Source: Blasia pusilla (Eukaryota). Taken from it: a stretch of 64,000 nt of DNA. How positions within the stretch are numbered: position 1 is the stretch's first letter; each line of letters begins with the position of its first letter. Position numbers and translations under genes: made by a program. Of the stretch, positions 9,575 through 32,245 are shown piece after piece. Under the pieces are notes generated by a model. It searched no databases. It was not told the origin of the DNA and saw only the letters and a list, made by a program, of their open reading frames with translations. Where the stretch lies: contig CM114271.1 of NCBI GenBank assembly GCA_050084515.1, positions 29,264,001 to 29,328,000 of the forward strand. The letters run 5' to 3'.

Positions 9575-12500
9575 GATGGACCTGCCCGAGCATCCGCTCC
9601 AAGGGCAGGTCCATCACCTCCTCTACAATCACCTCTGCACGTGATGCAGGAACTCCGACTCCGGGCTCACATAGTGAAGCGGCCAGCCGAAAAGCCTCGG
9701 CGGGCGTACCCCCCAGCGTCATAACATCGGAAGCAGAAAATAAAGGAGCGCGGTACACAATGGTGGCCGCCCCCAAAATGTGTTTGACACATGCCCCTCG
9801 TGAGCATCAGCAATAGGAGTCGTCGCACTCGCTTCTCCCATCGCCCTCCGTGCCTACACACCAAACTCTCCAGGAACTCTGATCAGGATCCATTGATGGG
9901 GTCCTCATCGCCTCGGACAACATGAAAGACTGAGGAAGCCTAGTCTGTTTCTTGGCTTCCCCTCAATGTGGATCCAACTCTGCGGTTGCTCCACGCGTCA
10001 CAACTGCGGCTACCTCCATCTGGGCAACCTTGCACTTCCAACCAGGATCCTCCATATCTCTGGCTGCTCCATATGATGTCGATGCCACAGATTTGGCATC
10101 GGGTAATCTCAATGCCATAGTGGCAATCTGCTCTTGTAGCTGATGTATCTGAGCAGCCATCCTAGCCTCACGCCCGTCATCTCCCTCGACGCGTCTAGGT
10201 GGTAGGACTCTATCTTCTCCACGGGCAACTCCATCACCGTGTCGGGAAACTCCAGCTCCTTGTCCCCCAACGGGACCACCTGGTGCAGGATCTCTAGGCC
10301 CACCCAGACCGGCTATTCGCTCTGGTGCCCTCTCTGGCCCTCGGTCCGAACGTAACTCACAATATAAACTGAAACACCTAGCGCGTGTATGACCATACCT
10401 CTGACAATAGTCACACTAATAACCTCCTAGTGCACCATCTCCTCCTCTATGTTGAGGCACACGTCCATGACCCTGACGAGTGCAGTCGCGCTGATGATGG
10501 GCTCCACCACATGACCAACAAGTGATAGTAGGCGGCTGCTGTTGAGCCGCATATGAAGGCGTAGGTCTTGTGGCATGGCCTCCCAGTATCCTCCCTAAGC
10601 TCGTGGAGCCACAGTCGATCTATCTCTCATCACCTTCTATTCCGCATCTTGAGTCTTTCGTGTCACTCTTGAGTGTATGGCTTTGGGATTGCTTGCTCTT
10701 CCAATGATAGTGGATCACCCCTCTTGGGAGAGTAACTTGACCATGGTCTATTCTTCGAGAGGTTTCTAGAGTGTGGTGTGTGTGTGGAGATAAGAGGTCA
10801 CCTTAGAGGAGTTTAGTCATACTAAAATAATGAATATTTTATATTTTGTATGTCCTTATAGGGATTGTACTTTGTATGTCCTTATATAGCAATCCATGGA
10901 CGTCAATAGGCCTGCTCAAGTAGGGTTTAACACTAGTTGTGCTATCTTCCTTGTATACAAGCGTAAAGTAGTTTATAGGGATTTTATAGCTATGAATTTT
11001 GGGGTCTGATATTACGAAGAAGTGATCGCCTCGGCACTTCTATTTGTGAGACCTATCGTGAGAGAATGGAGAGTATACATGATAATCTTGTATTGAAAAA
11101 GGAGAACTTCTTAGAGATTTCACCTTGCATCGACCACGTCTGCCGCAGCTAGAAGGTCTGCCCTTACTCAAAGAAAGGCTCTCGAAACGACAACGTTGCT
11201 GCACACGAGGGGCAGACAATCGCGACTGCTCTTGCCAGAACCCATGGTGGCTACGCTCTCCTCCGCCATGTTGCCCTCAATGTTCTTGGCGGTCCTAAAA
11301 AAAACTCTCAACGTAGGGGAGGTGTTCATAAGAAGCACCCCGACCCGCACCCGTGTCTGTAGGGTCCGGTCAAGCATCCTAAACCGTGACTAGATAGCCT
11401 GAGCCTCCGTCACCCCCTGAGTCACATTGATCAACTGGCGCAAGCGAGTGTAAGCCTCACGCAAACTCTCACATGGGCGCCTCTGGAAGTCGTGGATGCT
11501 CCGCAACTTCTCCGTCCGTACCCCCTGGTAGCTTGCCCTCAACTCAGCAAAGAACTCAACCACAGGGTTGAACTTGAGACGAACCCAACTAGATGGTGCA
11601 ATTGCTCCCGTGTGAGTAATCCCTCCTAAAACGTCACTAGTGGAAGAGGAAGTAGCCTCTCTTGACTCCTCCTCCTCATTTGGGAATGGCTCCATCCATG
11701 ACATATAATGTGGGTCATAGTAGAGCCTCCATGCCTTGATCTCATGTGCATATCTCTGAGAGAACTCATGGTAATCGTCCATGGGCGTCCCCTCTAAATG
11801 CTGAAACATACCGTTCCATGCTGTAAACGGGTTGAACTCTCTAGAGTTCCTGGCCCGCTGGGAGTGGCGCCAACTCCTAAACTCTACTATGAAATCGTGC
11901 AACTCAATTGTGCCTACTACACTTGAAAACCTACGCGGTCCTCTACCTTGGTCGTCCATCAAATGCCCAACTGGTAGGACCACTCACAATGTGTGGCGAT
12001 GTGCTCACAAACTCCTCTACACCCTCCCCCTTGTCTGACGATGACACAGAAGGAGGTTGAGGTGGTCCCTCACGTGGAGACCCTCAGAACCTCGCGCCAC
12101 TCCGCGTATATCCTCTAGAGCTACTCTCAAGTTCATCACCTCGCCTCTTTAAGTCTCGAACTGACTCCGTGATGACCCTCATGCCCCTCTCACTCGATCA
12201 CTCTCAAACTTGCAAGTAATCCCTCTATCACCCATCCCAAACATGTGGCACTCAATCTACACTCTCCCTCCCCGAGATGTATAACGTGTGGCAACAAGCG
12301 GCGTGGTGCGGCAAATCGACTAGGCTATCATCTCATCGACAACCTACCCTCAACTCCGGACACTCCACACAGATCTATGTCCCCTAAACCACATACATAA
12401 ATGATGCTCTCAACATCCACACACCCAATATCCCCTAATAAACTACCCAGATCCTAGAATCCCTCACGCGTGCAGGGTACAGGACCAGAATGGGTAACGT

Positions 12501-14302
12501 GAACACATGTCGATTTCTCTCCTCAGCAATTGCAAATCTCGACCCAAACTCAGTCGTGAAGACAAATCCTCCAATCAAGAAGTCATACTCCTCCCATACT
12601 GACGCTGCTCACAACTCTTCGATAGACAATGCGGTTCCAGTAGAATGGTGCGGCGTTGTAGGCGGCACGGAACGGCTACAAACAACATGACCCTCGATGG
12701 TGGGATGCGGCACTTGACGGCATACCCTCCTCAATCAACAATAAACCCACACTCTGCTCCACAATAACGGAGCGGCTCCGTGATCGAGATGGTGCGTTGC
12801 GGCCACGAGCAGCACGGCGCGGCAATCGGCGGCACGTTGCGGCTATGGGCGTCACAACACGGTACTTGATCGTCGTCAAGCGATTACCAATCACAACATA
12901 ACAGCATGAAATCAAAACTCAAACACCATAACCGGAGGTCATTTGCCATCACTAGTTGATGACAAAACTGCGATGACAGTGGCGGCCAAAACAAAGTACG
13001 TGGTGGCAACGCAAGTCAGAGAATCTACAAACGTTGTGGAAGACCCTCCACTCCGTAACGGGCGGCAATGGCAACCAAAGGTGGACAACGGATGGTGGAC
13101 CGTTGACGGTGACGGTTGACGGCTGATGGTGACGGCTGACCAGTGACGATGATGGTTGATCGTTGATGATCACGGTTGACCTTCGACGGCGGACTGTTGA
13201 CGGTGACTATGACGGTGACAGCCGCCGCTGGCGTGGCGGCTGGTTTAGGGATTGAACAATTTAACCCTAAAAATTGCCTAGCAATGGTAGTTTTGCAAGA
13301 TTGACCATAACCTCTTACTTGCAACTCCAAATTGTGTATTGTTTGTTGCACAACGTGCACAGCTTCACAATCTACAACAGCGTCAAAAAATTTGGAATTG
13401 GAGATTGCAGTAAAAACTGACGGGGACTGTCGTAACGTGCAATGTCTCTTTCTCCTACACAAAATTTGGCAGCGCTTCTACACTAATTTCTCCCAACCAA
13501 AATGTAAGACCTATAAAAATACAAATCATCAAGGTACATGGTGCTCCCAAGAGCACCTGCATGGGAAAACTTGCCCCCATACTCAATCCCTATAAAAAAT
13601 TGGGCAGTGCTTCCGCGCACCACTCTTCCACACAAAAAATTGGCAAATGCAAAGAACAATCATTGCAGTGCTTGCTCCGGTGAGCACTCCCATCAGCCGC
13701 GGAACAGGGAACACGGTCCCCAATCTGCAAAAACAGCGAATGACCAGCGAGCTCTCCCATGAAGTTCTCTCTTTCTCTCATTCTCTCTTTGTAAAGTAAG
13801 ATCCAATCTCTCTCTACACCATCTCACACCATAGCTCTCAAAGGTGTACACTCTCTCTCATGTCAAACAAAACCCACTCTCCTAATGAGAGGCTTGGGTT
13901 ACACTCACAAGGCAAGGGACTCACTCCGCCGCCTCATGCCAAGAGGTTCAACAAAGAGAGAATAAGCTCTCAAGCTCTCTCTCCTTGAGGTATACCCCTC
14001 CCCTCTCCCAAGCTCTCTCCATTGTAACCTATTCTCCCAAGTCACCTCCTTGGCTCTTGACCTGATATAGGAGGTCAAAGGTCACTTACCAAAAATATAA
14101 AGTCGATCATATATTCAAAATGGTACTTACCTAAAATAGTAAGTTTCTCAATATGGCTCCAAATGAGCCGAAACGAAGGGGAAACCTACTCTGTCAGGTT
14201 TTCCGGGCCTCAGAAGGTCATGCTCAACCTACAGAGCTTGTCCTACACTACTCGTGTAAACGCTCTGCTAGATCCCACTGATCTATCCTAACAATTGTGA
14301 CA
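9575..14302 (-). mobile_element. Ty3/gypsy copy B of the same family: 5' LTR, leader, gag; truncated before the protease
   Basis: Gag ORF 11390-11983 (GPRRFSSVVGTIELHDFIVEFRSW..ESLREAYTRLRQLI), CCHC knuckle near 10375-10415, and 9575-10430 collinear with 22180-23040. Carries an AT-rich insertion of about 500 bp at about 10620-11125. Confidence 0.85.
12508..14302 (-). repeat. 5' LTR of gypsy copy B (about 1.8 kb; inner boundary inferred)
   Basis: Starts TGTCAC at 14302 (minus). Its first about 100 nt match the 3' LTR start of copy A (3207-3310). TATA-like CTATAT lies about 235 nt in. Putative end ..ATCGACA at 12508, where similarity to the leaders of copies C and D begins. Confidence 0.6.
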
Positions 14303-16090
14303 CTATCTACAATAGTAGCCGATGCACCATTTGCAACCTCATTTTTCATGTCGATACTTGTTGTGAGTAGCACTTTGCAGCCAATGGCTAAAAAATAAAC
14401 TCATGAAATTGGCCATCTGATATCCATTCATTCGTGTGTGGATCAGGGGGGACATCTGTGGTTACATGAAGAGGGAAGATCTCAACTGCGCGAAACAGTT
14501 TACGGAGTGTTATAAGATTAAATAACTGTACATCGATATGGTGAGTACAAATGGCATGCGTGCTACTATCTATGTAATCTCTTGCAATGCCTTCATCGAC
14601 AAAGCATTCACCAAGACAACTATCTATCTCACAGTGCGTCGGAAGTGTTGACCTTATCTGAGATAGGAAGTTCAAGAATTCAGGGTCGCTGCCATGCGTC
14701 ATAAGAATGGCAAGATTATACTTGTCTATATTAGCATAGAATGGCGAGGAAGAGATGTGCCAAAAGGAAGAGACAAGCTCTCTATTATGACAACATATTG
14801 GGGGTAAATGACAAAGATCACCCAATAAGATCACAAGCTTATTTGAGAAAGGATTAAGGTCTGATGAGGGAGACACTTGGTGTAGTCTCATTGCTACAAT
14901 CTTAAGAAGGCGAGGCGTGAGCATGGAACATTCATCAATAACAATAACCTTGGCATCCCTTAAGCGCATGTATTGATCGGAGGCTGTATGTATTGAGGGT
15001 AAGTCACCTTTAATTGGGATAGCAAATGTTGAGTGAACAGTGATAGCAAAGTCATGCAATCAAACAACAGCAAAGCCAGTAGTGGCAGTAAGCAATTTAG
15101 GAATAGAATAAGCTGACAAGAATGTTTGCATGAAATGGATAAAAGAAAATCTTGCCACATCGTGGGGCGCCAATGATAGCACCAAGCCAAATGACTTTGT
15201 ACGAATTATATGGTATAGGTTTGCTTGCTCTGCATTTAACAAATGAATGGAGAGGTCTGGTTGACAAACTCGATGGATGCTGCTGTCCATTGTGGATTGT
15301 TGAGTATGAATGTCACTAAGAGACTGCACACATAGGTCAAACTGCAGGTGAGGGCCAATGACGTCCATTGCTTTAGAGACTATTTATGTACTGTGAAGCT
15401 AGCTCCAAAGCTTTGAATCAGCATGACTTTGAATTTCATCACTAATGCAGGACTCAGAATTAAAAATTCTTCGATGAATACATTCATGAAGGTATGTCCA
15501 AGATGGTGACACTAAATATCTGGTTCTCAAATTTTAAGGTGCTATTGCGTAACAATACTATATAGAAGAACTCGCTCCATTAGTGCAATGGATGGTACTG
15601 AGTAAAGTGTACCAGCCTTTGAGTCTTATAAACTGAGTTCCCCACTAAGTCTAATCCAACAAGGTTTACTAAGCACCTTGTGGGTAGTCTAAGAACCTCA
15701 TGGCTCTTCCAAAAATCAATGAATGTAAGTTGAGATAAGGATTCAGGTCGGTGGCAATAAAGGGTTGTTGGATGTATATAGACGATTGTAGCTTTTCTGT
15801 ATAGGCTTGTCCGCTTGTACGGTGGACTACAATTGAAAAATTCAACTCCCTTTCACTTGCATTTGATAAGAATCTTAAGAGCCGTAAGAGCAGCTTTAGT
15901 CAATGAGATTGATCTATTCAATATCAGGCCAGATATTAGTCGCAACCTGGTTTCATCCAAACCTTCAAGTCCTAGATACTTTGCACACTCGGTCGTAATG
16001 TTCAAAGCACCTTGAGGCTCGCATTTCAAAGCATATTTAAGCAGGTAAAAAGACCATTGAACATTTGTGACATGCTGTAGGTTCATGTCA
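14303..16090 (-). pseudogene. Helitron RepHel C-terminal part: Rep motif 3 and Pif1-like helicase
   Basis: YLLKYALKCE (Y..KY..K Rep motif), GAPRCGK Walker A, TATTG..TVHSTFAIP, VIVIDECSML, FSNKLVILLGDLCHLPPI, ANGASATIV. Interrupted at 14302 by the gypsy B LTR. Confidence 0.85.
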
Positions 16091-16114: not shown

Positions 16115-18668
16115 CTATCTAACTGTTAACTGCGGGTTTTCCTTACTGCATCCACTTTTGTTGTGAATTTTTAGCTCCGTCACTTACGAAAAACTCAGAG
16201 CTGACCCATTGCTACATAACTAAAATGAGTACCTTGTAAGACTCCTGTTGGGTGGCCCCAGCCTTAATGCTTCACACATATTTTTTGTGCAGAGTTTTGT
16301 TTAGCGACCTCTGACAAAGAACTTTTCATACCTTCAAACCCAGAGCCATGTATGTTGTTGCATTTCTAGGGTTGGTAAACTCACGCAATTAGGGACTTAC
16401 ATCATAAGTTACTAGGTTTCCTCACTTTTTTGTGTTGTGTTCATCTCAAAAAATTAGCGTATATTCTTCACTGAAACAGAACAGGGTGATCAGATATCGG
16501 ACTCTACGCAACAACACGTAGTCTTTCGATTAGGTGACCTCGCAAGCAGTACATAGCACAGAACGTATACTTACCTCAAGTTCATTTGTATTTCATATTT
16601 CATGTGTAGGCACTACTCACTTGGAAACTTACCCTTAGGACATATCTATTATTTTCAAGTTGAATGCTAAGCACCACTCAGAATTCTTAGGTTTCTATGG
16701 AACTACACACACTATTAGTACCTATACTTATAAGTAGTTTCAGTGTCTTAAATGCTTCACACAAACATTATGAGGATCAATGATGACACGCTTTTCTGCA
16801 ACGGACCCATGTGTAGTATTAGCTAACCTCCATTGACAGTAGGCAAGGATACTTCGTAACGTTATGCTCCACATATTCCACTCTTCTAGTTGTACTCAAC
16901 TGATCATCTACTTAACTGTAGATTCCAGGGAGCGCATAGTTCAGTGAATGAATTTCAGGGTGCACGTAGTTCAGTGAATCAAGCTTATTTTTGTCTCCAC
17001 GTCTGTCTGTTCAGATAAACATTTATCAATTGACGTCGTTAAGCTGTGCCAGACAAGATTGAGGTATGGCGCGGCCTAGGGTATCAAATAGACCTAGATC
17101 CAAGTTATTGTTCAAGAAGCTTAGGATAGCACGGTGTAGGCGCCATGCAAAAGCCACGGTTGTTGAGTCTCATAGACTACTCAGGTAGCCGGTGTGTGTT
17201 GCTTGGCCAGAGATTGCAATGTAACTTACTAGTTGGGAATCATAGTGCAACTCATTTATTAAACATATGAGGTGTTGCGGCTATTATGGTAGTGTATCCT
17301 ATAGCACATGTCACTTAAAAATGACAATTAAGACAACAGAAACATATCTACCTTATGCATTATGTAACGGGTACATGACACAATATGTCATTCCGTCGCC
17401 TTGTAATTTTTTTGTCTACCCACAACATGTAGGAGAAGATCGGTACACCGCCCATAATGTCTATATGACACCAGCCTATATTCGGGACATATTGAATGTA
17501 AACCCACTTTACCTGGAGTTCCTATCGTTAGTCAACTCAAGGCTAGGTATTGAGACCAAATACAACGGCTTTCATGATGGGTTCTTCCAAGTCAATAGCC
17601 TCCTAGACTGCCCTGTTTGTCGCATGGGGACTTGATGATCAGACTTCCATTAACTCTGATTTCTTGTACAAAAAAGTGCGCAAAGCGTTCTCCTAGTCAA
17701 CTTGAGGATTAATGAATTGTATTCACAATATATCCCGTTATTTGAACAACCTAATCCAATACGTGGTCTTGTAGTTTTTCCTTCTTCATCAGTTGAGCCA
17801 ATACTGAGAGCTTCACAGGAAAAGGGAAAAATAACCCATAGCATGACAGTTGATCCATACAGTTCAGAGTTAAACATGCTACAGGATGTGGAGTATTCAT
17901 GACCTATAAAAAGGCGCGCTTCCTATGATATACTCCAGAATGGGAGTGTTATATTCAAGGAACAAGCTCACATTAGATAGCAGTTCCTTAGTGATAGGAA
18001 TGGTATATCTGCAAATGCTAAGGTCACTATTGAGACAGGAATCTTCCCATTCCTATTCCCGTATGTTAGAGACTATTTTGACGGACAATGTTCCTTTGTA
18101 GACTACCTGCGCAATTGCGTGAAGAAACTTCTCAGTGTATTTACACTATATAAACCATACCTACTAATAATGCATCAACTTTGGCAGTCTATTGCATTTG
18201 CCTCTCGCGCACGTTCTTGATCTTGAATAGGGAGCTTGCTCAACTAAAACAAAAATACCCTAAAATGAGCGAACAGGAACTTTATTCATACCTTTCAAGG
18301 TACACTATTAGTGCACAGATACCAGGAAGCCCAAGTTGGCATCACCGCCATCTTAGGCACCTAATGGGGAATGTTGGATTTTTTCTTGACTCTCACTTCT
18401 GATGAGGTGTTTGAAACAAGGTGGGTTGAGGTTGAAGATGTTGAGAATATGGTAAAGAGAATTAACCCGCTCTTCATGTGGCGCGATGCACCGGTTGAGT
18501 GCGTAGTTCTATTCCATACTAGGTTGAAGGCATTTCTCCAAAGTTATATTTTGGGTGGTCCCCGCTAACTTAGAAGAACCCACAATTATCTGATTAGATA
18601 TGAACTACAGGGTTGAGATAGCTTGCACTCATATATTATCTTGTGGATTGAAAAGGAAGATATTGATC
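16115..18668 (+). pseudogene. Helitron 5' half (leader and Rep N-terminal region), inverted relative to the helicase half
   Basis: FPFLFP (about 18045-18062), IPGSPSWH, FFLTLT (Rep motif 1), DAPVECVVLFHTR, and RYELQG*DSLHSYIILW (HUH motif 2, about 18595-18647), which ends at the gypsy C junction. Confidence 0.75.
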
Positions 18669-18669
18669 C

Positions 18670-19080
18670 GGCCCACCTCGTAAGCTTCCCTATAAGCTTA
18701 TCGGACTCTATCAACCACTTAAGTGGCAAATGATCGGTAATGATGGGAAAGGGGTTGCGGAATAAATAACACCTAAAATGTGCAACAGCCCACACCACGA
18801 GCAAGCACTCACCCTCATATGAGCTATACTTTGCCTGTGCAACGTTGTTCAAGCCACTAGCAAAAGCCACCACGAACTCTCTACCATCATTGTCATGCTG
18901 GGTAAGCAGGGATCTAAGCCCCAACATGCTCCAATTGGTATGCAATTGGAAAGGACGCCCCCTAATCAGTCTCCTCAATATAGGCGCGCACGTGAATCTG
19001 TCCTTGAGCAGTTGAAATGCTCTCTCCTGCTCATCCCCCTAGTGCCACTTCCGATCCACCTTGGTCAACAAGGTTAGCGG
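18670..19080 (-). pseudogene. Gypsy RNase H
   Basis: RPFQLHTNWS..REFVVAFAS..AKYSSYEGECLLVVWAVAHFRCYL..FPIITDHLPLKWL..KLTRWA. Confidence 0.9.
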
Positions 19081-19990
19081 CTTCGCAATCAAACTGAAAC
19101 CTTGATGTACTGTTGATAGAAGTTTTCCAATCCCATGAATGCACAAACTTGACTCATATTTGTAGGGCGTGGAATGCATGAAATAGCCTCTACCTTCGTG
19201 CTGCACACCAAGGCCTCATGGGTATATCGTTTGACCCAAGTTCTCTGGTCATAGAAAAACTTGCACTTGCCTAGATGTAGCTTCAGCGCATATAACTGCA
19301 ATCATTGAAAGACCTCCTCTAGATGTCGCTCATGCTCCTCAACAACCATGGCTCTAAAGACTACGATGTCATCAATATAACACCTAGCAAAATCCAGACC
19401 TGCCAAGATCCTATCCATGACCCTCTGAAACTCAGCTGAGGCGTTCTTTAATCCAAATGGTAAGAACCGCCACTGGTACAAAGAATCCTACCCGTGAGAA
19501 TGGAAGCCCCAAAATACCCTCTTCTGCCTATCCTACAATCTGATAGGCTGCTGATGGTACTGGACCGCAAATCCAATGAACTGAAGACCTTTGCATGCCC
19601 AATTGCATCAAAGATCTCCTCAGGGGTGGGCATGGCATACCTATCGGACTTCATCTGCCGATTGATAGGTCGGTAATCTCCAGACATCCGCCTATCCATC
19701 TAGTTGCCATGCACATCCTTCTTGGCGGACATGAGAGTGGCAGATGCATATTCTTCATGCAACATCTCCACTAACCCTACTCCAACCAAGTTGTGGCTCC
19801 TACTTTGAATCTGAGCTCTCTCCATGTCACTGTACCTATAGGGTTGTCAAAAGATTGGCGTGTCACTCGACAACCAAATGCGGATCCCTGGATCCTTTAG
19901 CGTATCCAAATCCTGCATGCTAAATGCAAAACAACTCCTAGAACTCCTCAGGAACTGATGTATCCGTCGCCGCTCTCCTCTTATCAACTT
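19081..19990 (-). pseudogene. Gypsy reverse transcriptase
   Basis: DYRPIN..DRYAMPTPEEIFD..FSSLDL, PFGLKNASAEFQRVMD, CYIDDIVVF (about 19357-19383), LGKCKF; frameshifted. Confidence 0.9.
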
Positions 19991-20359
19991 AGGGCCCATG
20001 TCTGGCTCTCAAGTCTCCATCGTGACTACGGTAGGACTCTCTGGCGCGGGTGTAGGTGGTTGCTATGGTGCAACCCCATCTCGAACAACAGAACAACTGC
20101 TCTCTTATGGCCAATTGCAAAATCTGATCTCCATGTGTAGTACCCGGAACCACGCTCAATGTTGTGGCTACCATCTCTTGGTGTACTTGCAAAACATCCC
20201 AAGAAGTCCAAGGGTGTCTCTCCCGATTACCCTTGGTGTGTTGATCTCCTTGGGTCTCACCCCCACCTACTGCCTCAACCGTCTCGGTAGGCATGGGGCT
20301 CACCAACGCAATAGTTGTGATCTGTTGCATCCTCAAACGACGCTGCTCAGCTACTCCTA

Positions 20360-21308
20360 ACCTGAAAATCCATGTCAAGCAGTTCAAGTCCATCGCTTGA
20401 CCCAAGACATGATGTCCTGATGCCTCTGATAGTGACAGTATTGTCGTCACTCGTGTGGGGAATCCCATCACTCGTTCTCGCTCATCGATGTTGGGCTCCA
20501 CCAACCTCTGTACCTGGTCATCCCAAACCAAGCCACGTCCGGCCTCATTGAATGCATACGAAGCGGGAAAACTCACAATTGTGGGAAAGGCTACCCGTGG
20601 CATGCCAATCTTGTTGACCATAGTCAATGGTGGTCCATCATCATGCTTCACTGCTTATGATTGATGACTTGGATCCATAATAGAATCCACCAACAAATTG
20701 GAGGGGCGCTACACTCTAGCGTACGCTCTCCGTAAAACCTCATATAGGACCGAGTTGGTCCACCAAAGATGCGGGCGGTGTATTCTAGAACCTACACTTG
20801 CCGCATCCAAAAACACTGCCGAGCCAATCCATGCGCGCACGTGATGTGCACTCGTCACCACGCGGGATCTTGAATCGCCCAAAATCGGCACATTCTCTAG
20901 AATGAATGTTGGAGAATGAGACTGATGCTCTTGCAAGTGTCGCAAAATCCGCATCATCTCCCAAAACAACCTGGACCGAGTGTGAGCCAACCCACTACCT
21001 CGTCCAACACTCGAGTGGCCCTGACATGGCCAACCAACAATGACCAACTCTATGGCCCCAACCCGCTCCGAGTCCTGCGCCCCCAAAAATGAAATATCCC
21101 TTGGTAGGGAACTCTGGTATCCCTAGACAGCGGACGTAGACAACAAGTCGGGAAAACGAAGGCGTAATTGTGCCACATGGTGAAGTGAAGCGCGCCTCGC
21201 AACATCATCAATCTCCACATACAAGTACTCTTGTATGCGTACTCCTACCTGCAAAACAACAACTAACCCAATGCTAATCCCTCCAAAGAGATCCAACACC
21301 CGAATACC
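20360..21308 (-). pseudogene. DNMT3-like C5 cytosine DNA methyltransferase domain embedded in pol
   Basis: All in one frame: motif I VLDLFGGIS (21273-21299), motif II YVEID, motif IV GWPCQ (21021-21035), LFWE, motif VI FILENV (ENV 20889-20897), motif VIII DAASVGSRIHRPHLWWTN (to 20754), motif IX ERERVMGFP (about 20458-20483), motif X VLGQAMD (about 20389-20409). Only point-stop codons interrupt it. Confidence 0.92.
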
Positions 21309-21734
21309 CTCCTATGCGATGCGCCACACAATAGGTGTGATATCCAAGGGTGTCATCATAGCACTTTCGACTACCTCGGGTTCCTCTAACCCGTCACGCT
21401 CTGGTGCAAATGTCTCGCTTCACGCGGTCTTCACAGGCTCAGTGACTAAGCATCGAAGCTCCTCAATTGAGCCCCAAAGAAATACCTCTCCTCCATGGAC
21501 TGATGCGGCGACCATGGCACTCCTATCGGTAGAAATTTCAAGAACAAGAGTATCCTCTACATGGACATATCCCTCAATCAAATCACTAGGCCAAATGATA
21601 GCGTTGCTAAATGCTGCTAAGGTCGCCATCTCTCATGGCCGGCGCTCGATCACTGCACTTGTGAATCAAACGGGTAATGAGCTAAGGCGCCCATCACCTG
21701 ATTGCCATCCTGGTCTGTAGGACTCTGACTCCTC

Positions 21735-22045
21735 CTAGTAATCCAGGGAAAACCCCATCGGGTACAATACTGCTCCACCAACCAAGATGTCGCAAGACTC
21801 ACCATCAGTCACTATTGCCTTAGCTCGCACCATGGACTCATCTGTAGGATGTCTCGGGCGAATCCTTACCATGACCTCCTATTGGATGATATACTGTGTG
21901 GTACTCACTCCACCCAAGGATGAATATATCCGGAATGGACAATGCTCCACATTTGCCCTTGTCAACCCAAACCTCTAAATGCCGCTTTCCCCAACATCAA
22001 GGGTTGCGCTCCTGAATCCAACATGACGCGTTGCGGACCAAACGC
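21735..22045 (-). pseudogene. Retropepsin aspartic protease
   Basis: RVMLDSGAQPLMLG (DSG at 22010-22018) and C-terminal DILVGGAVLYPMGFSLDY (about 21740-21791). Confidence 0.8.
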
Positions 22046-22949
22046 TCTACCTCCTGGACTCACCAACTAAAAGACCTCTCCCCGATTATCAAAAAACAAC
22101 ACCAGGAGAAGCCATGGCATGCTCTATCGTGGGTCTAGTGGGCATCTCTGCCATCCTAGCAGCCGCAGCCTACCATGAATCTGACATGGACGGCCCAAGC
22201 ATCAGCTCCAAGGGAAGCTCCATCACCTCCTCTCCAATCACCTCTGAACTTGATGCAAAAACTCCAACTCCACGCTCATATAGCCTCGGCAGACAAACCT
22301 CCCAACGTTGTAACATCGGAAGCAGAAAACAACGGAGCACAGTACATCATCGTGGCTGCTCCCAACATTATACTCGACACATGCTGCCCGTGAACATCAG
22401 CAATAGGAGTCGTCTCACTCGCTTCTCCCATCATCCTTCGTGCCTACACACCAACAACATCACCAACTCTCTAGGAACTCTGATGAGGACCCATCAATGG
22501 GGTCCTCATCGCCTTAGACATCGTGAAAGACTAAGGAAGTCTGGTCTGTTTCTTGGCTTACCCCGATGTGGATCCAACTCTGCTACTACTCCACGCGTAA
22601 CAACTATGGCGGCCTCCATTTGGGCAATCCCGCACATCCAACCAAGATCCTCCATATCTTTGGCGGCTCCATAAGACGTTGATGCCACGGATCCGGCATC
22701 GGATAACCTCAATGCCATAGTGGCAGTCTATTGCAGTAGCTGCTGTATCTGAGTAGCCATCCCAGCCTCACGCCCAACATCTCCCTCAACGCGTCTAGCT
22801 GGGGGAACTCTACCTCCTCCATGGACAACTCCACCACCCCCTCGGGCGAATCCGACTCCTCGTCCCCCAACGGGACCACCTAGTGTACGACCTCTAGGCC
22901 CACCCGGACGGGCAACTCCCTCTTGTGCCCTCTCTAGCCCTCGGTCCGA

Positions 22950-23990
22950 AGGTAACTAAAGGTGCAAGCTGAAACACCTGGAGCGTGTGTGACCGTACCT
23001 CTGACAATAGTCACACTGATAACCTCCCGGTGTAGCCCAATCTCCTCTTCCTTGAGCTTGTGGTGCCACAGACCTATCTCGGAATCCTTGTTGCTACACA
23101 GATGGTGCAGGCAATCGTGACTGCTCTCGCCTAGAACCCATGGTGGCTACGGTCTTCTCCGCCATGTTACATTCGATTTCTCGACGGTCCTAAAAACATC
23201 TCTCAATACAAGGGAGGTGTTCATAAGAAGCACCCCTCCCACAAACGTATCCGCAGGGTCCGGTCCAACATTACGTACCATGACTGGATAGCCTGAGCTT
23301 CTGTCACCCTTTGAGTGACGTTAATCAACTGACACAAGCACGTGTAGGCCTCACGAAAACTCTCACCCGGGCGCCTTTGGATGTCGTTGATGCTCCGCAA
23401 CTTCTCCGTTCATACCCCCTAGTAGCTCGCCCTCAACTCAACGAAGAACTCAACCAGCGGATTGACTGGACGATGCAACAGCTCTAGTGCGAGTCACCCC
23501 TCCTACAACATCACTCGTGGAGAAACCCTCTCTTGACTCCTCCTCCTCATCTGGTAACAGCTCAGTCCATGATACTTAGTGTGGGTCTTATTAGAGTCTC
23601 CACTCCTCAATCTCATGGGCATATCTCTGCGAGAACTCATAGTAATCGTCCATGGGTGCCTCCTCTAAATGTTGGAACATTCCATTCCATGCTGTAAACG
23701 GGTTGAACTCTTTGGAGTTCCTAACCCGCTATGAGTCACACCAACTCCTAAACTCCACAATGAAGTCGTGTAGCTCTATAGTGCCTATAGCACCCAAAAA
23801 CCTACGGGGTCCTCTACCCCGGTCATCCATCTCGTACGCCCAACTGGTAGGACCACTCAATGTGTGTGGTGGATCACTAGCACACTCCTCTATACTCTCT
23901 CCCTCGTCTAAATACAACACAAAAGGTAATCAAGGTGGTCTCTCACGTGGAGACTCTCGAAATCTCGCACCACTCCGAGTAAACCCTCTA
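22950..23990 (-). pseudogene. Gag with CCHC zinc knuckle
   Basis: CDYCQRYGHTRSRC (about 22975-23016); GPRRFLGAIGTIELHDFIVEFRSW homologous to copies B and D. Confidence 0.8.
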
Positions 23991-24015
23991 CAGCTACTCT
24001 CAGGTCCACCACCTC

Positions 24016-25018
24016 TGTCGCGCCCCTACACTCCTTGAACGTCAATCTTTAGTGTTGCGGAAGCGTGCGTTCAGTAGGTCACGAACTCATCGCCGATCTG
24101 CATCCAAACACGTAATCTCGTTAGTCGGGTTTGGGCCAACCGGCGTTCCAACCCACCGAGTCCTCAACTCGGCGTCTCATCAAGCTCAACCTTCCTTAGT
24201 TCCTAGCTTCCAAAACATGGCAAGTCCTTCAAGACTTGGAACAGACTTCCTGGTTAGTCCAGGGATCTGAAACGGCCCTTGCGCGCCTAGCGATCCCAAC
24301 TGTTCAACGGCCCTCGGGTGAGTTCCAAACCGAGACCCAAGTAATTGAGTCGCGGTGTGAAATCCAAGAGGGATGTCTAAAATCGCGTCAATGGACTTGG
24401 TGCAGGTTTTCCAACCCAACGCCCAAACTCGCGTTCCGTTCCATGCCCTTGAGCCGCCCCACGGCACCCAAATTGGGGTTTGGGTTCCAAGCACTCTCGG
24501 AGACCTTCCCCCTTACTAGTACTTCTGGGGTTCTCCAATAACCCCTCCCCTTTGGGAAAAGAGGGTCGGGCCCTTCATTGTGGCCATCAACCCGACTCCA
24601 CTTACAGTCGTTTTCGGGTCGTATCTCAGCTGCTGCTTATGCGTTTGCAGCGATCTTTGATGCATTTGGACCGGCTCTCCATAAGCTTTCCAACGCATCC
24701 TTATTTGCTCCAAACGCATCTTGGCGCTAAAAGTTATGGCCATAAATACAGTCGGAAACTCTCAAACGCTAGTGGCGTTCCAAATCCGGATCTTCCCTTT
24801 GGCAACCCACTTCCTAGACTCGATTTCTTTCAAGTCTCATTCCGCGTTTGGTCCAGGTTTCTCAGTCGCGACCTTAACACCTGAAACGCGACTCCTCGTT
24901 CGCGTCTCGTCTCTTGTCTCCTCTTTGAGACAACTCCAACGCACAAACCATCTTAGCGTGAGCCCGCTAATGTTCCGATGTTCCGCTTGGCACTTGTTTG
25001 GTCATGAGGGTCGCGACA
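24016..25018. mobile_element. Solo LTR (1003 bp) of another family, inserted in the leader of gypsy C
   Basis: TGTCGCGCCCC...GGGTCGCGACA termini (10/11 inverted match) and perfect 5-bp TSD ACCTC (24011-24015 and 25019-25023). The flanks rejoin to match the uninterrupted copy B near 12135-12150. Confidence 0.92.
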
Positions 25019-25397
25019 ACCTCGCCTCTCAAAGTCCTGAAAGGATGTCGTGATGACCCTTGTGCCCCTCTCACACGATCACTCTCAATCTTGCGAGTAA
25101 TCACTCAATCCAACATGCGGCACTCAATCTACACTCTCTCACTGAGATATGTGTTGTGCGGCAACAAGCGGCGTGGTGCGGCAAATCATCTACTATCCTA
25201 TAATCTCATCAACAGGACACACCCTCAACTCTCGACATCTCATACAGGTCTATGTCCCCTTACCCAAACATCAATGATGCTCTCAGCATCAACACGAAAC
25301 TCAATATCCCAAATAACTGCCCAGTACCCGGAAATCCCTAACACGTGCAAGGCAAAAGACCAGAATGGATAACTTGACAACAAGTGTCAATGTCGGG

Positions 25398-25605
25398 CCC
25401 CTGCGCATATGCCAGTGACATGGGATCCCCTTTCAACTCCTATCGCTCAATTGATCACATCCCACGTAATTCAGTGTCCCTTGCGCATATGCCACTGACA
25501 TGGGATCCCCTTTCAACTCCTATCGCTCAATTGATCACAGCCCACGTAATTCAGCGTCCCCTACGCATATGCCAGTAATATGGAATCTCCTTTCAACTCC
25601 TATCA
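25398..25605. repeat. Tandem repeat, 80-bp unit, about 2.6 copies
   Basis: Units start CCCCTGCGCATATGCC / CCCTTGCGCATATGCC / CCCCTACGCATATGCC at about 25398, 25478 and 25558. Confidence 0.85.
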
Positions 25606-26799
25606 TTCAAATTTTCTCTACAGCAGCTCCCTCAGACTTCAAACTTAGCTCAACTCCAACGCCTCCACTTGCTCCACGGTCAAAATAGTAACCGATCAAG
25701 ATCCGTCTCTCCCTTCTCGATTCTAAAGCCTTTTATCGACTCTAAAGAATGATCAAAGGCTATTAGGTGTCTAGCTCCCTCTGGAGGACACGATTTAGCA
25801 CGTATAGGTGTCAAATCAAATCAAATCAAATTGACCACAAACTTTCAACCAATGGCACAAGTCAGCAAATAAACCGACTAGGATAGAGTCCCCAAAAAAT
25901 AGCTAGATTTTAAGAAAGGCTTCACTTCTTATAGAGAATGCATTTCTTCCGGTTCTTTTTCCTTTCTTCATATAGTAACCCCCCATGTTTCAATACGAGT
26001 ATAGATATATGAAAAAAATGACATAAAAGGAGATGTTGGAGCACAAAACAAAGGTGCTTACATTGGAGAGGTGTTCTTTTTTACGTTAATATGTCTTCTT
26101 GAAATATGTTGCGGAATTGGTGTATCAGTGATAACACCGAGTGGTTGCCTCTCCACGTCCAAAAATGACCCGATAACACTTGCCATCTACATAACACACC
26201 ACAAAACTATTAATTAAGTGTTTACATTTAATTCTCTCAGCAGTCTTGACCAATCGGAGAAAGAAGTAAAAAGAGAACGAAGAAAAATTAATGGGAAGAA
26301 AAAAGGAGAAACAGAGGGAAAGAGAAGGGAGAGAAAAGAATAGATTGCAAATCATAAAATTTTGGAAAGACTTTAAAAAAGAATTTAGGTTAGGTTAGGG
26401 ATAGGGTAAGTAACCTACCTAAGCATGAAATAAAAAGAGAGAAAAAAGGAAAAAAAAGAGAAAAAAGAAAGGGAGAGAAAAGAATAAAATTTAGTGTTTA
26501 AAAATCATTACGAAAATATAAAATAAGTTTTTTTTAATATTTTTTAATATTGTCGGATCCAAGATCTGGCTACGGTGTGATCTAACGGGCACCGTCAGAT
26601 CTTCGATCCGACGGTAATTTCGTCAACCCCCTCCCAACCTTCCTCTTCACCACCTTCAACCTTCCCGCTCTATCCCATCCCATTCCACTCCACTCATTAT
26701 GCTCCTTCTTTCTATCCACTCATTCCACTCATTATGCTCCTTCTTTCTATCATAGGTCTCTTTGAGACCCGTTTTCCCTGCCCGAGGTTGTTTCATAGG

Positions 26800-29410
26800 A
26801 TCCTCCATGCTATTTGGGATGAGCTTCGCCAGTCTTTCATCCTTCCCTTATCTAGGATTGCACTTGATCCTATGGATGAGCTCTCGTGGTATCTACTACT
26901 TCTCCTTCCACGATGATGTCTTCGCTATACCCGAGGAGGGAAGGCTGGCCATAGAGAGGTTGTGGCCCGATTGCGGTTCTTCCGAGGAGGTGATTGGGAG
27001 TCTCTGCAAAGTGAGTTAGTGGCATATGCCAGAGGTAGCACTCCACGTGGTCTCCCAGCAAAAAATCTTGTAGCGGCCAGATTTCGACGATGTAGGAGAC
27101 TTGGGAGAGCCGGGGAGTACTCGCGAGCGGCTCGTGCGCTCCACCCCATGGATATGGCTCCTCCTTCCATTGTTACCATCGACGCCCTCCGGAGACTACA
27201 CCCTTGTCCAGTGGTTAACATCCCAGCATTTGTATGTGACTTCCATCCTGACACGACCTTATGCCTAGACCCGTCCCTCTTTGCACAGGCACTTGGGCGT
27301 TCCCTTAGAATAGTAGCTGGAGGGTTGTCCGGTATGATGTACAAACACCTTCGTGATTTCTTTCCCTGCAAGGACTCTGCTAGCGACTTTTCCAAGTTGC
27401 TTGAGATTGCCTCTCACCTAGCTCAGGGGAGAGTGCCAACAGCAGTAGCCTAGGTATTGGGGGCGGGGCGACTTTTGGCGTTATCAAAGGAGGGTGGAGG
27501 GATCCGTCCGATTGCCATAGGGGAGGTGCTCTTGCGGTTGGTGAGTCGCACTATCGCTTTGCAGTTCCATGAGGCTTTCCAGTCACATCTGAGTCCGCAC
27601 CAATTCAGAGTTGCCACGCCAGCCGGTTGTGAGGCTGCAGCCTTAGGTTTGAGGGCTTGTTTAGATATACATCCCGAGTGGGTGGTTCTCCAAGTTGATG
27701 TGGAGAACGCCTTTAACTCAGTGTCTCGGGCAACTATCTTCACGGAGCTGACAGATGCAGGGGGTCCCATAGCGAGCCTGATTCCCTTCGTGCATGCTTT
27801 TTATGGGGACCCCTTGGCTCTCTATTTTTACCACGGTAGGTTCAAGGAGGAGGTCACGGTCTTGGAGGCGGCTACTGGGACGCGTCACGGTGATCCCTTG
27901 GGTGGTGCATTGTTTGCTTTGGCTCATTATCGAGCGGTTCTTTCTACGATGGAGGCTTTTCTAGGTTGCATTTTCCCTTCGTTGGCAGATGATACTCACA
28001 TTGTCGGCCCTGCAAACTTGGTTGTTCCTGCATTTCAGCACTTTTCAGCACAGTTGGCACACGTTGGCCTTGCGGTGAAGGTGGGAAAGTGCAAGGCTTG
28101 GTCTTCATTAGGCTTGTCAGCGGATATTCATTTACTCGACGGTTTTTTGACACCTGCTGGAGGGCTTCGCATCTTGGGAGTCCCACTCAGGAGCCAGGAC
28201 TTTGTATCGAGTTTTGTGGCGGCGGCTCTTACTAAGGATCTTCTTCATGTCGACGATCTCACGAGGATTGGAGACCCTCAAGTAGCTTATGGAATCCTCT
28301 CGTCATGTTTTGCCCGTAGACCTGGTTATCTGTGTAGAACCGTGTGGGCGACTAGCCATATTACTTCCTTGTATAGATCCTTTGATAGAAAGATTATGCA
28401 AGGATTTGGGGATCTTCTAGGACCCGACTCATTAGAGTGCCCCGCGGGGGAGTTAGCTCGTAGACAGGCTTCTTGGCCGATTGCCTTTGGTGCAATAGGT
28501 CTCATAGCGACTGAGTTAGTGGCGTCTTCACCCTTTTTAGGGAGTTGGGCCATTGTAGCACCCCTCCTTTGCTCCCGATTTTTGGTTAGAAATAGACCCC
28601 TACTTTTACAGTACGTTTCCTAGGTCGAGGATGGTCTTTTCCCACTTTAGTCTTCACTCACAGCTTGTAGAGACTCCCTTCTTGTTGAGGCTAGAGCAAT
28701 TCTTCCCACTTTCTCTTCCCTAGTTACCTCCGGACAGTATGGGCTCCAATCTTCTTTGATGGAAGCCCACTTTGATGCATTGTTTAGAGCTACTATGTTG
28801 GACGGGAATATCCCCATGGAGGTTCGGGCCCGTATTTGCTCTTCCTCCATGAAAGGGGCAGGCTCATGGGTGGGGGCTCATCCCCTCATCCCGGCTTTCT
28901 GCATTGCACCACTTACCTACACTACAGCGATGAGGTTCCCAATGGGCCTGCCCCAACCAACGGTGGTTGGTTCGACACATTGCGAGTGTCATCGGAGTCT
29001 GGATCCACTTGGTGTGCATTTGGCACGGTGTCCAGTTGGGGGTGAGAGGATTGCCACTCACAATGCAGTGCGGGATATTCTGTTCTCTATTGCTTGGGAG
29101 AGTGGATTCCATGTACAAAGAGAGAGGCACTACTCCATGTGGGATTCCCTTATCCGTGCTAATCTCTACATGACGAGGGAGTCTGAGGTGGTGGTAGCGG
29201 ATGTTGTAGTGACGGATCCTACACGGGAGGCGGTGCGAGCCCAAGTGGTAGCACAAGGGAGATTGCTACAAGGAGCGGCGGCGGTCAAGAAGACCCACAT
29301 TTATAGTCGACTTCATGACGGACATCGATTTATCCCCCTAGCCATTGAGATGTACGGGGCGATGGGGGAGAAGTTTGACTCGTTCCTTACGGATTGCGCC
29401 CATCCTCTCT
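26800..29410 (+). mobile_element. CRE-clade-like non-LTR retrotransposon (RT, CCHC, restriction-like endonuclease)
   Basis: ORFs 26962, 27457 and 28756 share one frame, broken only by stops. RT motifs: GIRPIAIGEVLLRL, HQFRVATPAGCE, VDVENAFNSVSR, GTRHGDPLG, LADDTHIVG, LRILGVPL. C-terminus: CECHRSLDPLGVHLARC, HNAVRD, RANL..VVADVVVTDP..K...Y..FIPLAIEMYG. Confidence 0.85.
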
Positions 29411-32245
29411 GGTGGAGCGACACCGTACCGAGCGCCCACCACGCTCGGTACGGTGTCGCGGCTATGTGCCCTCCTCGCGCATGCTTTTTCATGGCTACAA
29501 CTCCTCCGTGGTGTCGTCTCATGATCATCCACATGGTACCTCTATGTGCTCTCGTGCTAACCACAGCTCCTAGTTGAGACTATGTCGTGCCCTTGATCCT
29601 CTTGTCTTGCCCAAGTTTATGCTTCTTTGTGCTCCCGTGCTTGTTGCGGCTCCTTGCTCAGAGTAAACGCCGTGGCTCCTTGCTGCGACTACGCAGTGTT
29701 GTTACTCACTCCTCCTTGCGGGAACGGAGAGGCAATATAGCCCTTTCCTGTCAAGCTTGTGCTTGCTTCTACCTTGGCTCTCGAGCTTGTGCTTTCTTGT
29801 GAATCTAGATGCTTCCTTTCCTCTACTCTCACATTTGCGTCCCAATCTCCTTGCTCCTCAAGATGCCGTTTCTTTGAGTCATGTGCCACGAAAGGTAGAT
29901 TTGCGCCAAGGGGCTGGGGCTTTTAGAGTATAGGTTTGTTCTTGGCCTATTGATGAGTTTTGTCTTTGCATTTGGGTGGGGTTCACATTGGCATTTCTTC
30001 TGCTTCTTGACCAATTGATCAGAGTGTCCTTTCCTAGTCTAGGGTTGTTCTACTGAGGGCATTTCAAGGAATTGTAAGCATCATTTCCTCACTTCTAAAT
30101 CTTTGTCTTTCTCTTAGCCCTTATACTCCTTATTGGCTTTCCTATTGAAATGTTCCATTCCCAAATTTTTGCTCTACAACATTACTCCCTTATCGCTTGT
30201 GGTTGATTCTAAGTAGTGTAGAGTACCAAGAAGAGTACTTTTAGACAAGTGGGGGAGACGTGGTAACCATGGTTGATTCTAAGTAGTGTAGAGTACTCAA
30301 GAAGAGTTCTTTAGAGAGGTGGGGGAAATGTTGTTACCACACATTCAAGCAGAGTGACTATCAGCAAAGCTTTCATTTCCAACCAAGCTTTCATTTCCAA
30401 ATAAGCTTTACATGTTAGCCAATCTTGCTTTCTATTCCCGATCTATAGACTTGGAATTTTCCTCACTCCAAGTCTGGTAGGAAAGCAATCTCAATGTTAA
30501 TTACTACACCTTCACACTTTTTCCCTCTCTAAGGAATTTTTTTAGTCTCACATGTATGTGGGTTATTTAGATCTAATGGGCACGTTTAGGTGAACCAAAG
30601 ACCTACTCTAAAAAGCATATTGTGGTGTGGGGTTTTGAGACATTTTTTCACAGATGCTGCTTCAAATATGCATTCTCTTTCGTTGTAGGGCCTCTTGAGG
30701 TGATATTGGGGGCTCCCTTGGACTTCTATTTGAACATTTTTTTTCAACCCCTCAACTTGGTTAGAAAAATATCCTTTGTTTGATAATGAAGACTCTCCCC
30801 CATCGAAAAAAGAGTGTCCTTTATCGTGTCTTTGAACCGTGGAGCATGCTTGGGGCTGAATTTTTTCCCCCAAGGAGGGATAATGCCAAAGTGTGATTTC
30901 TTCCACTTGGTCAGACGCACACAGTCCTTTGAGAGATGGGACACCATTTGCAACTCTCCAATGGTTGGAGATTGGTAGGCTTTACACCATAATGCTTCTT
31001 CGATGAAGTGACTTTGGATTCCCTCTCCCTATGTGGATTTCTTTGAGGTTATTATGATTGCCATGTTGGTCTTTTCTGTAGCTTCGATATGTTTTGCATG
31101 AATGTTGGGAGTAGGCTAGGAGTTTTATTCCACTTGAGAGAAGATTTCTCCCAAGTGGAAGAAACCAGAGGTGACTCGAGAGCGCAACTAGAGTTGGAAC
31201 TAAACGTGGAGCAACTTCCAAATTGAAAGCTATTGAAGACGGGAGGTGACTCAATAGGGCAACTGGATTTGAAACTGAACTTGGAGGAATGGTCAACCCG
31301 GCAGCTAGTAGAGACAAGAGGTGACTTAGGAGCTCTTGGAGAAAGTTGAGTTGAGTTGAACTGATAGTCAAGCTGGCGGAATGTTCAGTCCGGAAGCTGC
31401 TAGAGACAGGAGGCGACTCAAGAGCTTCTTGAAAAGCTAAATTGGAACCTCGAGCTGCTCAACTTGTGGACTTCTTGGAATTCACAAACCACATGATTAT
31501 GAGAGTAGATTGTGCATAGGCCTAGCATAATTGTATCTTGCATAAGGATATGAATAGAACTTTGTAACTCTTAGAGAGAACAAAGTGGTAATCATCTGGA
31601 AAAATGAATAAAGTTCTGTATCAACTCTCAATGGTAAAAATTTGGTTCAAGTAAAGTGTTACCTGAGTATGTGAGTATGTGGAAGTGCGCAAGGTATATT
31701 CTCATGAGTTTCTACTTTGAATGCAATGTATAAATACAGTCAACTCTACACAGTTCCCAAGAACACGGAAATCCTAAAGACCACCTCACAACTCTTTGGG
31801 GAGGGAAAGAGCTTCTTCATCAACGGACCTCCCTTGGTACAATCATAACTATCACCAAGACAAAATTTACATGTTTGAAAAAAAATGTTATAAAATATTG
31901 CGGAGGCTTCAAAAAACCTAAAGTGTTTGACCCAAAAAAACCCTAAATTTCTTAACACACACCTACAAAGCTATACTAAGACCCCAAACCAAAGATGAAT
32001 TTGGTTAGCTAAAATTTCCAGGTGGCGTAAGGAGAGGTGTGTGCGCAGGGAGAAGGCACTTTCCCATAATAGTACAGATTCATGGCGTTTAAATCGTGAA
32101 TTCAATTTTTTTCATACAATTCTTTCTTCCTACAATATTTTGTCCATTGCCCAACCTTCCGAGGCCTTCCAACTTGAGACCGGTGCATAGCACATAGTAG
32201 AGAAGCTTCCTCTTGCGGGTTCTTTTTGAAAAAGGGTTTCGCAAG

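Follow-up and report, generated by a model that had tools for sequence, protein, structure and literature searches.

Cytosine methylation is the main route by which plants silence transposons, and an element equipped with a de novo methyltransferase of its own inverts this logic. Does such an element reside in a 64,000-nucleotide stretch of Blasia pusilla DNA (assembly GCA_050084515.1, contig CM114271.1, positions 29,264,001 to 29,328,000, forward strand; hereafter the window, whose own numbering is used throughout)? An earlier note, made from the letters alone, had described at this locus a Gypsy retrotransposon of a probable land plant with a DNMT3-like DNA methyltransferase built into pol. 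We found that 18589-25385 on the minus strand is a dead, 3'-truncated copy (copy 1) of a high-copy family with Ty3/Gypsy domain make-up. This copy is a fossil, and its family belongs, on good evidence, to the Gypsy-DNMT3 elements, as a land-plant member. What is new is that the methyltransferase domain appears to close the open reading frame (ORF) for Gag and protease, ahead of a conserved in-frame stop codon that is of the leaky type as judged by its context.

A DNMT3-type methyltransferase domain in a Gypsy element

We mapped copy 1 using Pfam and by comparison with relatives, comprising 80 related loci from a scan of metagenome contigs (L numbers) and matching proteins (P numbers). Pfam gave no gag or protease match on the degenerate frames of the window, and these parts were placed by tblastn with relatives. 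From the 5' end of the element to its truncated 3' end, the parts are:

25019-25385, minus strand: 5' non-coding end, common to copy 3 (blastn, 77% identity to 12138-12510)
24011-25018, no strand assigned: private insert of about 1 kb; 330 DNA reads join 24010 to 25019, and copy 3 is without it
22557-23836, minus strand: gag region with frameshifts and stops and a remnant of the CCHC knuckle (CDYCQRYGHTRSRC); tblastn with the gag parts of Marchantia P0158/P0160 and Sphagnum P0183, 28-61% identity
21618-22157, minus strand: retropepsin-like protease (tblastn with the L013 protease region, E 2e-28)
20376-21311, minus strand: DNMT3-type C5 cytosine methyltransferase domain, 312 codons (PF00145, PDB matches, motif table)
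20066-20375, minus strand: ORF1 tail after the methyltransferase, poorly conserved (frames compared)
20057-20065, minus strand: ancestral ORF1 stop and its context, in the frame of the reverse transcriptase (RT): TAG 20065-20063, CAA 20062-20060, CCA 20059-20057
18589-20005, minus strand: RT and RNase H (tblastn with L013, 56-72% identity; PF17917, PF17919)

The methyltransferase domain matched PF00145 at E 6.2e-11 (42.7 bits against a cut-off of 22) in the scan that the earlier note had suggested. As that note had claimed, a complete set of motifs lies between protease and RT; it reads, in unpermuted order, I (DLFGGI), IV (GWPCQG), VI (ILENV), VIII (HRPHLWWTN), IX (ERERVMGFP) and X (LGQAMD), all within 21311-20376. 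The domain is 61% identical to the intact domain of locus L013, contains three in-frame stops (domain residues 63, 201 and 219) and has His in place of the second Arg of motif VIII. The YIDD motif of RT, noted earlier at about 19370, was located at 19379-19368. RNase H occupies 19038-18589 (PF17917, E 8e-24), and integrase is missing because the element is cut off near 18586. Most family members are without the private insert, which probably arrived later.

Translation of 22100-19989 on the minus strand placed the C-terminal half of the protease (AIVTDGESCDILVGGAVLYPMGF), the linker and the methyltransferase in one frame, as had been proposed. The proposed active-site DSG of the protease (22018-22010, within RVMLDSGAQPLMLG) is real as well, although it is off this frame; since it differs in frame from the C-terminal part, there must be a frameshift inside the protease. 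One of the point stops noted earlier near the methyltransferase is ancestral: in relatives, the Gag-protease ORF ends after the methyltransferase at a conserved stop. An indel in the ORF1 tail of copy 1 has shifted the methyltransferase frame relative to that stop.

Sequence, profile and predicted fold all group the methyltransferase with DNMT3A/B/C, in agreement with the likeness to DNMT3 noted earlier. Among PDB chains (phmmer, E<=0.01), 29 of 34 matches were DNMT3A, 3B or 3C (best 6.8e-11), and the remaining five were plant DRM2 or DRM, over motifs I-IV only. A profile built from 11 family domains matched DNMT3A at 6e-23, DRM at 7e-14, M.HhaI at 4e-10 and DNMT2 at 7e-10; neither DNMT1 nor a chromomethylase (CMT) was among its 57 matches at E<=0.01. 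We modelled the intact L013 domain with AlphaFold2 (mean predicted confidence, pLDDT, 83.3; predicted TM-score, pTM, 0.85), and all Foldseek matches listed for this model, down to rank 50, were DNMT3 (best E 5.6e-19, TM 0.73/0.80). The likeness to canonical DNMT3 is confined to the catalytic domain, and Pfam found no PWWP or ADD domain in the window translation, L013 or the Marchantia models. A cluster search with the Marchantia domain matched generic DNA_methylase clusters, phage ones included.

A conserved stop codon follows the methyltransferase domain

In L013 (321-6809), 2163 codons lie in one frame with two stops, one of which is private while the second falls between methyltransferase and RT. 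The Pfam order on this frame is zf-CCHC, DNA_methylase, RVT_1, RNase H, Integrase_H2C2 and rve. We surveyed this second stop in 82 sequences, the 80 loci and two window copies, 48 of which hold the N-terminal anchor of RT. A stop followed by CAACC was present 19-20 codons before the anchor in 45 of these 48 (32 TAG, 13 TAA), and the next base made it CAACCC in 42 and CAACCA in three. The codons after the stop are CAA CCA in the window (TAG), L013 (TAG) and L014 (TAA), and CAA CCC in the main metagenome family. The divergent locus L072 has TAG TAG CCA at the equivalent site, in frame, and L030 matches the RT anchor only in part. ORF2 is in frame with ORF1 in L013, L002 and L072.

Gene models of bryophytes end at the same place. 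Those of Marchantia (P0158, P0160, P0162, P0165 and P0167) and Calypogeia (P0157), together with metagenome models for gag, protease and methyltransferase, stop about 45 residues past the conserved motif HPWxxWD, and the models of Sphagnum P0183 and Marchantia P0161 skip the stretch with the stop as though it were an intron. The earlier placement of the methyltransferase inside a retrotransposon polyprotein stands, but it is not simply in pol, since the Gag-protease ORF of relatives ends with the methyltransferase, before the conserved stop. The leaky UAG of tobacco mosaic virus (TMV) requires a CAR YYA signal, as described in PMC2754532. TAG CAA CCA in the window fits a signal of this TMV type, and the downstream ORF is in frame.

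The family is widespread in bryophytes and has a second architecture in chlorophytes

A search of 1.84 billion representative proteins with the methyltransferase domain gave 2405 matches at E<=0.001 and 158 at E<=1e-30, the best being from the liverwort Calypogeia fissa (60% identity). Among longer proteins, 31 matched at E<=1e-10; the named ones are mostly 'hypothetical proteins' of Marchantia polymorpha, with Calypogeia and two Sphagnum species accounting for the rest. Over the whole length of the domain, named matches in these three genera have 40-61% identity. Marchantia P0158 aligned to the window in a single high-scoring segment pair (HSP) of 707 residues over protease and methyltransferase, with gag preceding, and Marchantia P0161 aligned over methyltransferase, RT and RNase H; Pfam confirmed the domain order in P0161 and P0178. 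We considered and rejected the Marchantia models as host genes, because they contain gag, protease and RT. In Marchantia, Calypogeia and Sphagnum, such elements have so far stood unrecognised under the annotation 'hypothetical protein'.

The window holds three further copies:

790-2894, plus strand: copy 2, with methyltransferase tail, RT start, internal deletion, integrase and PHD finger
9576-12510, minus strand: copy 3, with gag, the lead into protease and the 5' end; identity to copy 1 about 80%
63676-63995, plus strand: copy 4, a gag N-terminus running off the window end (tblastn, 62-68% to Marchantia and Sphagnum gag N-termini)

In copy 2, the methyltransferase tail lies at 790-1093, the RT start at 1407-1805, integrase (by rve) at about 1796-2540 and the PHD finger (PF00628, E 6e-10) at about 2757-2891; a 4-nucleotide deletion has taken out its ORF1 stop. 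The stretch 790-1093 is 85% identical to 20743-20442 and the likeness continues into RT, which agrees with the earlier report of an independent copy at 775-1085 having the same methyltransferase tail before RT. Four window fragments, collinear bryophyte gene models and 80 related metagenome loci thus establish a family trait, as had been proposed.

The assignment to Gypsy was upheld by the order of gag, protease, methyltransferase, RT and RNase H in copy 1, which is collinear with Marchantia gene models, by RT, integrase and PHD finger in copy 2, and by the full Ty3/Gypsy order found with Pfam in L013. The coding make-up of the family is that of Gypsy and its ends are DIRS-like. No terminal repeats, and hence no simple long terminal repeats (LTRs) of the Ty3/Gypsy kind, were found in the window, where the 3' side of copy 2 shares no detectable sequence with the 5' sides of copies 1 and 3. 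Split direct repeats in the arrangement A1-coding-B1-A2-B2 are present in relatives L020 and L049, and L002 has at least the A pair.

We next classified the flanks of the domain and built a tree for 207 of the 280 matching proteins, namely those covering domain residues <=12 to >=300, a set without Sphagnum, Closterium NIES-53/54 and several Marchantia proteins. In 144 proteins (type B), RT/RNase H precede and/or integrase follows the domain; in 34 (type A), protease precedes and/or RT follows it; and 29 consist of the domain alone. The tree of these 207 proteins and the window was made with FastTree only, is midpoint-rooted and covers element-borne domains without host DNMT3, DRM, CMT and MET1 and without Klebsormidium. 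All 144 type-B rows fell in one clade of 165 rows with no type-A row inside (Shimodaira-Hasegawa-like support 98), and the window grouped with Marchantia and Calypogeia in an 11-row clade (support 100) nested in a 23-row clade (support 99). Among named hosts, the site of the methyltransferase tracks lineage: in the chlorophytes Haematococcus and Hariotina (type B) RNase H precedes it and integrase follows, whereas in Closterium, liverworts and Sphagnum (type A) it is flanked by protease and RT. The domain tree (proteins P0010-P0403) is consistent with a single domain shuffle. Common to both architectures is a PHD finger after integrase (window 2757-2891, plus strand; L020 at about 11890-12025; many type-B proteins). 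This is the place where chromoviruses have a chromodomain.

A neighbouring gene that matches liverworts best identifies the host as a land plant, probably a liverwort. This gene (52896-54440, plus strand) encodes an LPR1-like multicopper oxidase, is open for 515 codons and is apparently intronless over this span. Its product is 69% identical to a homologue in Marchantia and 66-67% to those of M. paleacea, Calypogeia and Riccia; beyond liverworts, identity is 61-62% in lycophytes, <=56% in mosses and 46% in charophytes. The land plant suspected earlier from the letters is therefore confirmed by the closeness of this oxidase to liverwort homologues.

The methyltransferase domain is under purifying selection

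The earlier note had suggested comparing the ratio of nonsynonymous to synonymous substitution rates (dN/dS) across copies. We used codon alignments from single HSPs covering >=90% of the query, which retained 46 of the 82 sequences for the methyltransferase, with stops masked and pairs with saturated proportions dropped. Between lineages (63 pairs with dS 0.5-3), the methyltransferase had an approximate median dN/dS of 0.15 (interquartile range 0.13-0.17); the median for the protease was 0.30 (43 pairs with dS 0.5-3). Close pairs of the methyltransferase (dS 0.02-0.15, n=238) had a median of 0.68, the value that decay after insertion would give. The Cys of motif IV is kept in 33 of 34 type-A and 144 of 144 type-B proteins, the Glu of ENV in all 34 and all 144, and the second Arg of motif VIII in 34 of 34 and 143 of 144. 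The family's methyltransferase domain is under purifying selection, with the exception of the window copy, which has stops and the Arg-to-His change.

Base composition differed between copies. The observed/expected ratio of CpG is 0.28 in L013, 0.65 in the window copies and 0.90 in the host oxidase gene. The low value of L013, a single locus, would fit long-term CG methylation of an active lineage. Copy 1 has A/T where most of the family reads G/C at 410 places and the reverse at 125 (DNA run, 18586-25390), the kind of bias that methylated cytosines of a silenced copy would leave on deamination.

The family is abundant and transcribed

We placed reads of one DNA run (about 1% read) and three RNA runs on 18586-25390 when they were >=85% alike. 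DNA depth along the element, both orientations summed, was about 410-2330, which indicates a very high copy number; gag had 800-1270, the methyltransferase 410-1340 and RT as much as 2330. As many as 52148 of 74581 DNA reads were <90% alike to copy 1, and we therefore conclude that this is a large, diverged family which carries the methyltransferase domain throughout. Outside the private insert (24261-24941), RNA depth in the three runs was 6-113x for the orientation in which the first mate falls on the plus strand and 0-10x for the opposite one, and transcription of the family is thus strongly strand-biased.

An additional joint between 20629 and 21067 was present in RNA only (12 reads, 1, 3 and 8 per run; 0 DNA reads), with 19 other letters between the joined ends. 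It is possibly an expressed family variant without motifs IV-VIII and not a clean splice.

How the methyltransferase may be produced and used

We consider it likely that the family represents a branch of the Gypsy-DNMT3 elements in land plants, with an ORF1 that encodes Gag, protease and methyltransferase and a leaky stop that separates it from ORF2 with RT, RNase H, integrase and PHD finger. Most ribosomes would stop at UAG or UAA followed by CAA CCN and release a Gag-protease-methyltransferase product, and a minority would read through, as in TMV and in gag-pol of murine leukaemia virus, and so supply the replication enzymes. Methyltransferase output would then match that of Gag rather than that of RT; the conserved stop after the domain suggests such Gag-like enzyme amounts, which bears on the purpose of the enzyme. 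It may be carried into the particle, be freed there by the protease and methylate the new complementary DNA (cDNA) or the insertion site de novo, and the PHD finger of integrase may read histone tails and so influence target choice. Taken as one, these proposals describe a transcribed, very high-copy bryophyte lineage, Marchantia included, whose main product is Gag-protease-DNMT3, which obtains its replication enzymes only via TMV-type readthrough, whose particle-borne, stoichiometric methyltransferase marks the element's own cDNA before integration or during it and is paired with the PHD finger of integrase, and which is old in green plants, with one shuffle between the streptophyte and chlorophyte types. 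We put this whole chain forward as tentative, and it is less than probable that all of its parts hold together.

Several observations weigh against the favoured arrangement of two ORFs with a leaky stop, or against the reach of its evidence. Readthrough is predicted from the codon context, and CAA CCC of the main metagenome family has only five of the six consensus bases. The stop is TAA in 13 of 45 sequences, and L072 has two consecutive stops. Because many of the 45 loci are close relatives, they amount to few independent observations. The stop is also not universal, since in the deeper type-A proteins P0031, P0385, P0386 and P0391 and in Closterium P0398/P0399 methyltransferase and RT are in one predicted ORF that runs through. 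The dN/dS values are approximate because dS between lineages is near saturation (1.9-2.6). The RNA is sense to the minus-strand element only by the usual library convention, and since just 2, 9 and 7 RNA reads in the three runs were >=99% like copy 1, the family transcripts come from other copies. Copy 1 itself cannot work, because of the three stops in the domain, the Arg-to-His change in motif VIII, the frameshifts and the absence of integrase.

The proteins in which methyltransferase and RT share one predicted ORF (those four and the Closterium pair) could mean that the methyltransferase is internal to a single-ORF pol, the stop being decay inherited from a dead master copy, all the more as one family accounts for most of the 45 stop-bearing loci. 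We regard this as improbable. The same stop site recurs in the window lineage, L013, L014, the main family and L072, the ends of the Marchantia and Calypogeia model ORFs coincide with it, CAA CC after the stop is kept while the flanking peptides vary, and with so high a copy number the family must have spread with the stop in place. Granted a genuine stop, ORF2 might be expressed by splicing out the stop, from a subgenomic RNA or by reinitiation, and gene predictors did splice out the stop in Sphagnum P0183 and Marchantia P0161; the two successive stops of L072 also count in its favour. However, none of the 15 RNA joints listed of 59 passes over 20065-20063, neither splicing nor reinitiation needs the agreement in frame between ORF2 and ORF1 seen in L013, L002 and L072, and the context of the stop fits CAR YYA, so that we consider such a route unlikely, if a little less so than a stop that is mere decay.

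Two further alternatives concern the enzyme and not the stop. A recent capture of a host DNMT3 by one element, as a passenger evolving neutrally, would agree with cellular DNMT3 enzymes being the nearest solved relatives of the domain, but we found no evidence in its support. The domain occurs in liverworts, Sphagnum, Closterium and chlorophytes at 33-61% identity, its dN/dS is 0.15 and the window falls within a strongly supported group of domains carried by elements, which together make such a capture extremely improbable. An active enzyme might instead serve a purpose other than self-methylation of cDNA, acting in trans on the DNA of the host or of rival transposons, or contributing to the particle as a structural or DNA-binding component. 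The enzyme has no targeting domain attached, Gag-level production would suit such a component if the ORF model holds, and de Mendoza et al. 2018 (PMC5890265) called the role unclear. On the other side, the same work demonstrated that retrotransposon DNMTs methylate CG de novo and put forward self-methylation (PMC5890265), and the CpG ratio of 0.28 in the near-intact L013 is as expected of a lineage long CG-methylated. We therefore give a different role of the enzyme a minority chance, though one to be taken seriously.

Relation to known elements

The closest described element is KnitGypsy-Dnmt3 of the charophyte Klebsormidium nitens (de Mendoza et al. 2018, PMC5890265). Both have a Gypsy make-up and an intronless, unrearranged DNMT3-type domain with conserved key residues inside the polyprotein, Ka/Ks is <0.2 there and about 0.15 here, and the DIRS-like split direct repeats of KnitGypsy-Dnmt3 match those of our relatives L020 and L049 (PMC5890265). 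They differ in host, ours being a land plant with relatives in Marchantia, Calypogeia and Sphagnum, in the far higher copy number found here and, compared by description, in the position of the domain, given as 'in the Pol polyprotein ORF' for KnitGypsy-Dnmt3 (PMC5890265) versus closing the Gag-protease ORF here. Klebsormidium was absent among the named protein matches to the methyltransferase domain. Self-methylation of cDNA is a hypothesis of the same authors (de Mendoza et al. 2018, PMC5890265). SymbioDIRS-Dnmt3 and SymbioLINE-Dnmt of Symbiodinium are likewise retrotransposons with DNMTs, the DIRS type being DNMT3-like with two domain orders, but they belong to other element classes (tyrosine recombinase, and long interspersed nuclear element or LINE) and to dinoflagellate hosts (PMC5890265).

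The chlorophyte Gypsy-DNMT3-PHD elements (Haematococcus, Hariotina and many metagenome contigs) share the methyltransferase lineage at 33-39% identity, the PHD finger after integrase and the Gypsy RT, RNase H and integrase. In contrast to the bryophyte family, they have the methyltransferase between RNase H and integrase in one ORF and lie on a separate side of the tree (support 98). We know of no paper on elements of this chlorophyte type. TMV P126/P183 and gag-pol of murine leukaemia virus resemble the present case by an in-frame UAG between an abundant product and a rarer extension; here, protease and methyltransferase are upstream of the stop, and readthrough is a prediction. Chromoviruses, with a chromodomain on integrase, and CopiaMBD are also retrotransposons with modules that read chromatin or methylation (PMC6673714), whereas the reader here is a PHD finger and is joined by a writer enzyme.

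No report of a DNMT-carrying retrotransposon in a land plant was found in the literature searched (liverwort, Marchantia, Sphagnum), which lay outside most subscription journals and supplements, and the earlier statement that no land-plant example was known agrees with this. In their available text, PMC12344493 and bioRxiv 10.64898/2026.05.21.726589 refer to 'streptophytes' only through a citation of de Mendoza et al. 2018. Published cases have so far been from dinoflagellates and one charophyte alga, and the family described here is transcribed, present in high copy number and resident in a land plant. DNMT3-like activity in bryophytes need not be all host-encoded, and the relatives in Marchantia open the way to experiments in a tractable model plant.

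Other features of the window

Just past the 5' end of copy 1, at 25398-25637, are three tandem units of 80 nucleotides (95% and 65% identity). A coding-like stretch without Pfam match (18154-18568, plus strand) abuts the cut-off of copy 1 and is possibly Helitron-related, and so possibly is a fragment of a PIF1-like helicase at 14391-15059 on the minus strand (PF05970, E 6e-10). Long open frames of a non-LTR (LINE-type) RT extend over 26917-29574 on the plus strand, with PF00078 at E 4.5e-16 on 27454-28620. A 317-codon open frame at 45199-46149 on the minus strand matched zf-C17orf113 (E 5e-12) and, weakly, DUF4371, and looks like a transposase-derived gene or a DNA transposon.

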